This document shows, one piece after another, positions 44,801-47,800 of a stretch of 58,061 nt of DNA (position 1 is the stretch's first letter; every line of letters begins with the position of its first letter). This DNA is from Thermodesulfovibrionales bacterium (lineage in GTDB: Bacteria > Nitrospirota > Thermodesulfovibrionia > Thermodesulfovibrionales > SM23-35): contig JBAQLU010000113.1 of NCBI GenBank assembly GCA_049302065.1, forward strand, positions 1 to 58,061, given 5' to 3'. The position numbers are program-made.

Positions 44801-47800
44801 AATATCCCAGACTTCAAATCCGGCCTGATAAAAAGCAGATGTCATTTCACGGTCTCCGTTGCTGCCTTCTTCCCGCAGTATTGCTACCCTTGGCTGTACA
44901 GCGTTGAGGAAGATCTTTTGATCAGTATTCTGAGGAGTAAATGTAAGTATATACTGAAGTCCTTTTCTGTCAAAACTTGCCTTCTTTTCCTCATCAATAC
45001 AATCAGGGTTTGCCTGGAGCCTGTCGAGATGATAACTTGTTTCTTCCCAGAAGGCCCTGAGAACTCTCATGTCTTCATTTAAAACAGCCTGTCCATTTAT
45101 GCTCATGTTTATATTTTTATCAACAGTAGTATCTCCGATTATTTGATAAGGTATGAGGTTGTATTTGAGATCTGCTATGATTTTATCTTCATTTCCCGGA
45201 AGATATTCGATAACAAGCCCGAGTTCCTCTGAGAATAAAACCGAAAGTTCTGAGTTGACACTCCACCCCTGCCCTCCCCTTGGCTCTGGGTTAATATTTA
45301 TTTTCAATCCGCAATTCCCTCCAAAGGCCATCTCAAGGAGTGTTACTATCAATCCCCCGTCGCTTCTGTCATGGCCTGAAAGAATGAGGTCATCTGCAAT
45401 GAACTTTTGAATGAGATGAAATGTCCGTTTAAGAAGTTGAGGGTCTTCAAGATCAGGAGACTCATTCCCTAACTGTCCATATACATGCGCTAAGGCGGTC
45501 CCTCCCATACGGTATTTGCCTTTGCCGATATCGATATAAATCAGTCTGCTTAGACCCGGCATCTTTATATCAGGAGATACAACTTTTGTAATATCAGGGC
45601 TTGTGACATAGGCAGAAATAACAAGGGATCCGGGAGACTTGACTATTTCAGTTCTGCCGGATGAATCAACCACCTTCGCAGCCATAGACAGGCTGTCTTT
45701 TCCTCCATCGATTGCTATTCCGAACTCAGGCAGAAGATCTCTTAGGGCTATTGCAGCATCATAAAGCCTTGCGCCCTCACCCGGAAGCTTTGCTGCCCAC
45801 ATCCAGTTCCCGGAACATTTAATATCTTCAAGTGCGCTCACTTTTGCCCATACAATATTGGTCAATGCCTCACCCACGCTCATCCGGGCCATTGCCTGTG
45901 GATTGATCAGACCTTTTACAGGCTGCTCACCAATCGAGATAGCAGCCCCTGTTGATCCGAAATGGCTTTGAGCTGTAACAGCCACATTAGAGAGTGTCAG
46001 TTGCAACGGGCCGACACATTGTTGCTGTACAATGAGGCCTGTAACAGACCTGTCCACCTTATTGGTAAGAAATTTTTTCGAGCCTACTGAAACAAGACGA
46101 AGTACCCTTTCAAGGGCTTCACTTACAGGGGTGTTTTCAGGAAGGCGCAAAGGTGCAAGTTCCGATTTTTTCCGCTGCATATCAAAGGTCTTCTGCGGCA
46201 TCTCACCAAGAACCTTTGATAAATCGAGATTAACCGGTGAACTGCCGTCTGTCTCATCGTGAAGAATGATATAACCGTCACCAGTAATCTCTCCGATAAC
46301 AGAACAGAGGGCTTTTTCCCTTCTGCATATAGCAAAAAATTCTTCGGACCTGTCCGGCTGTATTAAAAGAGCATCCTGTTCCTGGTATTCTGCTCCCCAG
46401 ATCTCAAGCACTGAAAGTGTGTTGTCTCCAAGCTGTATATTTCTGATCTCTATCTTTGCGCCTGCAGGATAAATGATTTCCTTAACAACATTACAGTTTC
46501 CGCCTGCGCCCTGATCATGTATGCTGACGATGGGGTTCGCATCCCCCATCTCAACACATGCCCTTATGACCCTGTTCACTTTCTGTTCCATCTCAGCATC
46601 ACCGCGTTGTACTGCGCTGAAATCAAGCTCTGCTATGTTCTCCCCCTGTATCATGCTTGATGCAGCGCCTCCGCCGATTCCGATCCTGTATGCAGGACCG
46701 CCTATCTTTACTACAAGCATTCCTTTTTCAGGACTTCCCTTTTCGATATGCCTGTCATCTATCTGTCCGACCCCTCCGGTAAACATTATCGGCTTAACCC
46801 ATTCCCTTCTTTCACCATCCGGCAATCTCAAGCCGAATGATCTTGTAAATCCCTGTATCACAGGTTCTCCGAATTTGTTTCCATAATCAGAAGCGCCGTT
46901 GCTTGCTTCAATCTCTATCTGCAAAGGAGCGGCAAGGTTCGGCGGATATGCGAAAGAGGGGTCTTCCCATGGCAGAGCATAGCCCGGTATCTGCAGATTA
47001 CCGACACAGTATGCAGATGTACCTGCGATGACCAGGCTCCCCCTGCCTGTTGCATGGACGTCCCTAATCCTGCCGCCGGTGCCGGTTTCTGCTCCGGGGA
47101 ATGGCGCTACACCAGTAGGAAAATTATGCGTCTCCGCAGTAAAGATTATGTGATAATTGAGTTTTACTTCTTGAAAACGCGAGGGTTTGCCTTTATGTTC
47201 CGGCACTATTGTCGATATCTTATACCCCCGTATCGCACTTGAATTATCCTTGAAAGCTATGACACTGTTATTAGGATTGGATTTAAGGGGTCGTTTAATA
47301 AGATCCATTAGGGTGTGAGGCATCTTTATCCCATCAATGATAAGCCGACCTCTAAAGAACCAGTGTCTCGAATGCTCGCTGTTTGACTGGCTAAGGTCAA
47401 AACATTCCACATTGGTCGGGTTACGGCCTATTTCATGGACAAAAAGGTTGTAATAATAATCAATATCCCATTCATCCAATCCAAGGCCCATAATAGTATT
47501 TAATTCTCTTAGGGCATCTTTCCCCTTAAAAGAAGTATGGGGAAATGGATATATCTGATAAAAATATTTGCTAATCCTCCTGAGAGCCTCTCTTCCTTTT
47601 TCGATCAGTGGCACTATATAAACAGGTTCAGGTTTCATGCCTGTCTCAAAGGCAGACAGCCGCTCCGGATAGCGACACTCTGTCATCCGGTCATGGACGA
47701 GATCCAAAAAGGATTCGAGGGTTCGAGGATTCGAGGGTTCCAGCGATTGACTTTTTCCCGCTTGACCCCTTGACCCCTTGACCCCTTGAATCCTTTCTTT

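Follow-up and report, generated by a model that had tools for sequence, protein, structure and literature searches.

The purL gene of the Thermodesulfovibrionales bacterium genome analyzed here (G000) contains, within its reading frame, an inverted octamer repeat that, on balance, is probably a gene-less copy of the repeat arms of a cassette carrying a four-helix-bundle (FHB) gene; the loop that accommodates this element likely acts as a neutral landing pad where repeats have been successively replaced. The window covers positions 1 to 58,061 of contig JBAQLU010000113.1, where purL encodes a long-form FGAM synthase and is present in a single copy (Table 1). The insert at codon ~130 (site B) consists of a purine-rich arm, a 13-base loop and a pyrimidine-rich arm, 89 bases altogether; folded as DNA, it reaches -22.7 kcal/mol, a stability (z = -5.5) that was matched by 0 of 200 shuffled sequences. 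These results bear out the initial annotation, which had noted an in-frame octamer inverted array at this place. The purL peptides that it had quoted from three relatives were located as well, in G001 (a genome of the same genus as G000), G024 and G022, but the insert of G022, previously called heptamer type, has an 8-base period and hence is an octamer array.

Table 1. Repeat elements and variable sites in the window, with the genes that contain them
Feature	Position	Strand	Remark
purL, long-form PurL	44105..48190	-	1361-aa open frame
purL site B, inverted octamer element without gene	47708..47796	-	codons 132-161
purL site A, single-arm heptamer array	47933..47959	-	codons 78-86
24-codon purL insert	47507..47578	-	unique to G000 among 30 loci
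another variable purL loop, codon ~964-987	45230..45301	-	length differs in relatives
REP-like palindrome in restriction-modification gene	32533..32604	-	in frame, codons 875-898
CCCT-type motif in DNA methylase gene	53214..53240	-	in frame, codons 378-386

In the predicted N-terminal domain, site A corresponds to a loop (residues 72-85), and site B to a loop (131-154; the least confident part is 143-149) followed by a helix (155-165). The right arm of site B takes over the start of this next helix without a gap in 5 of the 30 purL genes, and in the structure model of the G007 protein a helix is kept across the repeat-coded residues 152-162. Two other places in purL vary in length. The loop at codon ~964-987 is shorter in G001, and in one sediment contig it is shorter by 12 bases. 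The 24-codon insert is bounded by two diverged copies of one helix start and lies outside the known repeat families; a search of G000 produced no second copy, and among the long contig pieces listed from RNA libraries, none crosses the whole insert, which may represent the scar of an old insertion or else an assembly join.

The content of the purL loop differs among relatives. A search of 41 genomes gave purL matches in 33, from which 30 loci were obtained. A repeat is detectable at site B in 22 of these, namely, octamer arrays in 10 genomes, heptamer arrays alone in another 7 and a CCCT palindrome in 5; three genomes display a nested state, with the CCCT palindrome between heptamer arms, and the left and right arms differ independently of one another. 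Three well-supported sister pairs, G000/G001, G002/G024 and G006/G021, are unlike at this site, and mapping the classes on a tree of 31 genomes built on conserved columns, with strong support for only 8 of 28 branches, yields a raw count of 9 changes of class across the 20 labelled tips. Turnover extends to site A, where relatives carry a CCCT palindrome or differing heptamers; one length of this site is common to 10 of the 30 loci, yet seven units are found among the 8 labelled.

The purL elements belong to an abundant genomic complement of repeats. G000 contains 108 heptamer and 30 octamer arrays, compared with 1 and 0, respectively, in shuffled DNA, along with several palindrome families. 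A single unit can be found at up to 17 arrays; arrays with the same unit lie within 5 kb of each other in 14 of 47 pairs, versus 4.0 expected. In 26 of 34 paired arrays the purine arm comes first, and the reverse order does not occur, with no difference between intragenic and intergenic arrays. A strand-specific role of hairpin stability was considered and rejected, given that the two-arm list shows no consistent side and the purine-then-pyrimidine order is strand-symmetric. After merging, 81 elements were assigned to 73 ORFs with a minimum length of 150 aa, and 16 of the elements lie within the first 45 codons; this tally is based on crude gene calls and includes a few chance hits. The pyrimidine strand of heptamer arrays in the first 50 codons (on contigs C206, C249, C203, C27, C80 and C99) encodes hydrophobic stretches that apparently are signal peptides, and the purine strand encodes hydrophilic loops.

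All 11 genes for which the initial annotation had named in-frame inserts are on this list of ORF elements and were confirmed by Pfam. A Pfam scan of 26 host proteins identified 24 as housekeeping enzymes and the other 2 as restriction-modification proteins. The window includes two restriction-modification loci (31573-38422 and 49966-54371), and both methylase-bearing genes contain in-frame repeats. The description of the hosts as single-copy genes holds for purL and fails for carB, which, in a copy-number check of 20 hosts, has a full-length paralogue with 51% identity on contig C38; the extra matches of ileS and murB show at most 35% identity. This second carB (C38:2227-5424, 1066 aa) has no repeat in the ORF element list. 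Catalytic motifs were found in 9 of the 10 host proteins checked, carB lacking one of two patterns. The turnover that had been reported for alr, carB and lpxK is seen, and it extends to murD in addition to purL: murD has four variable loops with purL-like turnover and carB has two, whereas for alr and lpxK it was judged by eye from the peptides, and the lpxK insert is common to G000 and G001. At alr (C203:14760-16025), on C143 and C139, and in the G001 ortholog of C27:4011-6209, a common wrapper sequence occurs on both sides of CCCT/REP cores; it may represent another small element family.

Comparison of G000 with G001 allows turnover to be counted between close relatives (1.88 Mb of the roughly 2.9-Mb G001 genome compared; 1,116 ortholog pairs with a mean identity of 92%). 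Across 388,516 aligned residues, we identified 112 divergent blocks, 33 of which contain a repeat, compared with 17 of 3,360 random coding windows; in 14 blocks, the repeat is present in both genomes. Among the 68 internal repeat sites in 52 genes, 28 are inherited, 12 carry another class, 9 are altered and 19 are one-sided, that is, have no repeat label in the other genome. The altered sites comprise 5 with the same class and a unit differing by at least 2 bases (one of these is a probable merging artefact), 1 changed CCCT and 3 with a near-identical unit. Swapped sites have unique sequence and remodelled flanks in both genomes, and no target-site duplication was evident by eye in 33 junction pairs, where the flanks are remodelled. 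Most swaps alter the length and the flanking codons, and some of the changes are plain expansions. There are also swaps that leave the length unchanged: at murD site 3, 16 of 24 genomes share one length and five units occur among the 7 labelled; at murD site 4, one length is shared by 14 of 22 genomes, and five units occur among the 5 labelled; and an ATPase gene shows a 24-for-24 base swap. Only 7 split genes were found among 907 G001 proteins and none involves a repeat, so that no disrupted class was seen with which to contrast the in-frame survivors.

Two small gene families are associated with these repeats. The FHB family (PF05635) has 14 matches in G000 and a match in all 24 relatives in the bacterial family. 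In G000, a strict scan places 5 of the 14 FHB genes between purine-rich upstream and pyrimidine-rich downstream arrays (more by eye), against a background of 35 in 773. At 30 FHB loci, an array is located upstream in 15 cases, downstream in 19 and on both sides in 13, versus 0 of 54 control windows. Similarly, CCCT arms flank DUF559 genes in 22 and 26 of 30 loci, counted by side, and on both sides in 21, versus 2 of 52 controls. The octamer family of site B flanks an FHB gene that is itself broken by a CCCT element across C139/C143; the purL element shares with the FHB cassette the arm unit and the inner ends, with the 13-base loop in place of the gene. A deletion intermediate was found at C190:34028-34187, where the first and last codons of the FHB gene are retained between octamer arms, and triple nesting is seen at C158:1341-2120, where octamer arms with an FHB start enclose an inverted REP pair, which in turn encloses a DUF559 gene with BoxC arms. 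Among 32 inner arm ends, a tally that can count both ends of one element, 27 have the partner arm facing them at a distance of no more than 100 bases, whereas 4 lead into an FHB-like start. The octamer arm is present in several phyla; 39 of the 109 loci from other genomes are empty hairpins and 4 are in an open frame.

The CCCT palindromes are heterogeneous. One subfamily matches the TMECO/BoxC consensus, with 48 exact matches in G000 (none in shuffled DNA), a single one of which is in an ORF; for the PPLPPF-type subfamily, counted with a separate pattern, 23 of 39 matches are in ORFs (strands summed), and this subfamily seems to be far better tolerated in coding DNA than the strict BoxC type. 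The DUF559 domain is also encountered in long open frames (L310 in G003, 2324 aa; L302 in G001, 706 aa; L298 in G016, 409 aa), possibly whole cassettes that are in frame within other genes. Other candidate drivers were rejected: G000 has no match to GxxExxY/PDDEXK_3 genes, and a motif scan of the 300 bases around each of 17 Y1 transposase loci detected neither arrays nor CCCT, a CCCT-like run being visible by eye at one of them. A correlation with FHB counts (rho 0.60, 31 genomes, hand-tallied) and a table for DUF559 (11/20 versus 2/17) both include kin and are leads only. Taken as an association, the flanking patterns make it reasonably probable that the repeats are the arms of FHB and DUF559 cassettes.

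The persistence of the hot spots could reflect either targeting of new repeats to old ones or selection, and intergenic DNA provides a control. Junctions already occupied by a repeat show a new class in 11 of 104 cases, and empty ones in 34 of 662 (odds ratio (OR) 2.2, p 0.04); when both gaps are at least 40 bases, the figures are 10 of 69 and 29 of 264 (OR 1.4, p 0.41). CCCT occurs in 3 of 65 intergenic regions with arrays versus 69 of 1399 (OR 0.9), and the OR for REP is 0.5. Between genes, any attraction of new repeats to old ones is thus weak or absent, and because these controls lend no support to site-specific targeting, selection on tolerant loops is the likelier cause of the hot spots, which are best read as neutral landing pads maintained by selection rather than as targets. 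The initial annotation had such sites recurrently overwritten: replacement is borne out by the unlike sister pairs and the 12 class swaps among 68 sites, but targeting is not implied by the intergenic controls.

A more radical possibility, to which we give limited credence, is targeted, templated overwriting, whereby an activity encoded by the cassettes recognizes an existing hairpin or array and, through gene conversion or template copying, substitutes its own unit in register. The same-length unit swaps (murD sites 3 and 4, purL site A and the ATPase gene), with their perfect new periodicity, favor this scenario and are not predicted by insertion followed by trimming; 7-base slippage would disrupt the frame of an essential gene. 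Replacement of part of a predicted helix by repeat-coded residues with no indel in 5 of the 30 purL genes points in the same direction, as do the 9 of 43 doubly occupied junctions without a common class and the 18 of 37 changed or one-sided sites that have a repeat in both genomes. Against it, the classes do not co-occur in intergenic DNA, the junction enrichment is weak, and length and flanking codons are altered in most swaps. The fullest version, in which FHB and DUF559 cassettes are transposase-free writers that copy arrays in register over existing DNA and, within a single genus, keep rewriting loops, signal peptides and even helix residues in essential enzymes, appears less probable still.

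Origin in place, that is, growth and drift of arrays from seed codons by local slippage and hairpin-templated repair without transfer between loci, is improbable as a general account. Many units are only 1-2 changes apart, arrays often begin in native codons and plain expansions exist, but a CCCT palindrome is not achievable from an octamer array, and neither the recurrence of one unit at many arrays nor the elements with common inner ends and FHB remnants is accommodated; for the 12 class swaps, this origin is largely refuted. It is very unlikely that the inserts are functional, as expression-tuning mRNA hairpins or adaptive peptides, or are spliced out. The strong hairpin and the retention of sites across a family fit with function, but sequence, class and length are unconserved even within the genus, and some relatives have single arms or none. 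Contigs from RNA libraries of related strains (two sediment libraries from one study; DNA possible) cross each site B junction, one site B version being 15 bases shorter and another heptamer being present at site A; none of the listed pieces spans the whole site B element, and no joint skipping 47708-47796 was found in four runs, in which contigs only were searched. Depth peaks over the element come from other repeat copies and were discounted.

Under the cassette-derived, selection-maintained explanation that we prefer, the repeats would be supplied by FHB genes enclosed in inverted 7/8-mer arrays and by DUF559 nuclease genes with BoxC-like CCCT palindromes on either side, and internal deletion, of which one intermediate was seen, would convert cassettes to empty hairpins. 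Copies would disperse, often to nearby sites, in line with the clustering of same-unit arrays, and copying would presumably be driven by the two proteins. Landing in frame in a tolerant loop would add 7-40 codons; later copies of other repeats would be tolerated there, and the older repeat would then likely be trimmed off. In-frame indels at the loop would be nearly the sole coding events to pass selection, so that the content is swapped fast and the site persists. The inserted peptides themselves are probably passive. Several observations sit uneasily with this explanation. If gains were independent, the overlap observed among changed sites would mean that no more than about 50 sites in the 1,116 genes are usable, a small number for selection alone, and the junction enrichment is above zero. 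In G010, 7 of 8 loops contain arrays, yet no FHB match exceeds the cut-off; CCCT loops occur in G017 and G029, yet neither has a DUF559 match; and an FHB gene lies directly behind the octamer arm at only 2 of the 109 loci of other genomes.

These findings provide a measure of peptide turnover in essential enzymes, with 12 class swaps among 68 sites between species whose orthologs are ~92% identical. They also link two unexplained repeat classes, the bacterial 7/8-mer arrays and the BoxC/TM palindromes, with two small gene families, so that the origin of the repeats can be tested. In practical terms, these loops will be a source of error in alignments, domain calls and phylogenies of this group.

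Individual aspects of this system have precedents; descriptions of class swaps in protein loops, of a cassette origin, of FHB genes with repeats or of DUF559 with palindromes were not found in the largely open-access literature that was searched. The BoxC/PIT/TM triplex motif is always intergenic in E. coli, with no linked gene and with local instability, as stated in the portion of PMC4666352 available to us, where the terms DUF559 and endonuclease are absent. One CCCT subfamily meets the TMECO consensus; unlike BoxC/TM, however, the palindromes here flank DUF559 genes, and a related subfamily is frequent in ORFs. The intragenic GTAG/CGTC REPs and REPtrons (PMC3733652, in part) resemble the present elements in that hairpins occur in ORFs and inverted repeats surround a gene. 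They differ in that the REPs of like genes were mostly located at different sites there and that here, by the motif scan, arrays and CCCT are away from the Y1 (HUH) transposases. Heptamer repeats of Beggiatoaceae, cyanobacteria and Xanthomonas are abundant and some are translated, one in a surface loop; from the accessible parts of PMC4679880 and PMC4692102, they are mainly intergenic or at protein ends and of unknown origin, whereas here about half are in ORFs, many of them internal. The purL element is similar to a MITE in having terminal inverted arms and no transposase of its own.

The closest parallels are found in two unrelated systems. Rickettsia palindromic elements (RPE; Ogata 2000, 2002) are dispersed and translated in frame within unrelated metabolic genes (PMC10969869 and PMC3184786, consulted in part), just as the repeats described here are dispersed and in frame inside intact genes. 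As far as that description goes, RPE are about 105-150 bp long with a conserved peptide, in contrast to the several 25-90 bp classes here, which do not exceed 89 bases at purL site B and are mostly tandem arrays with a varying peptide; moreover, the repeats here swap at one site and trace to cassettes, and swapping of RPE was not found in the sections of these two papers that we could consult. In the P6b stem of the Nostoc trnL intron, 7-base repeats form complementary arms of a fixed stem-loop, and one of the classes I and II has repeatedly given way to the other (PMC4476775, excerpts). There, as here, one repeat class replaces another at a fixed place, but, to judge from those excerpts, P6b is a non-coding stem with two classes and one direction, whereas the present repeats affect the protein loops of many genes and comprise 3 or more classes. 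Thus, in-frame repeats, in Rickettsia, and replacement of repeat classes, in a Nostoc intron, are already known; by analogy, the purL-type loops would combine insertion of the RPE kind with replacement of the P6b kind, two cassettes providing the supply.
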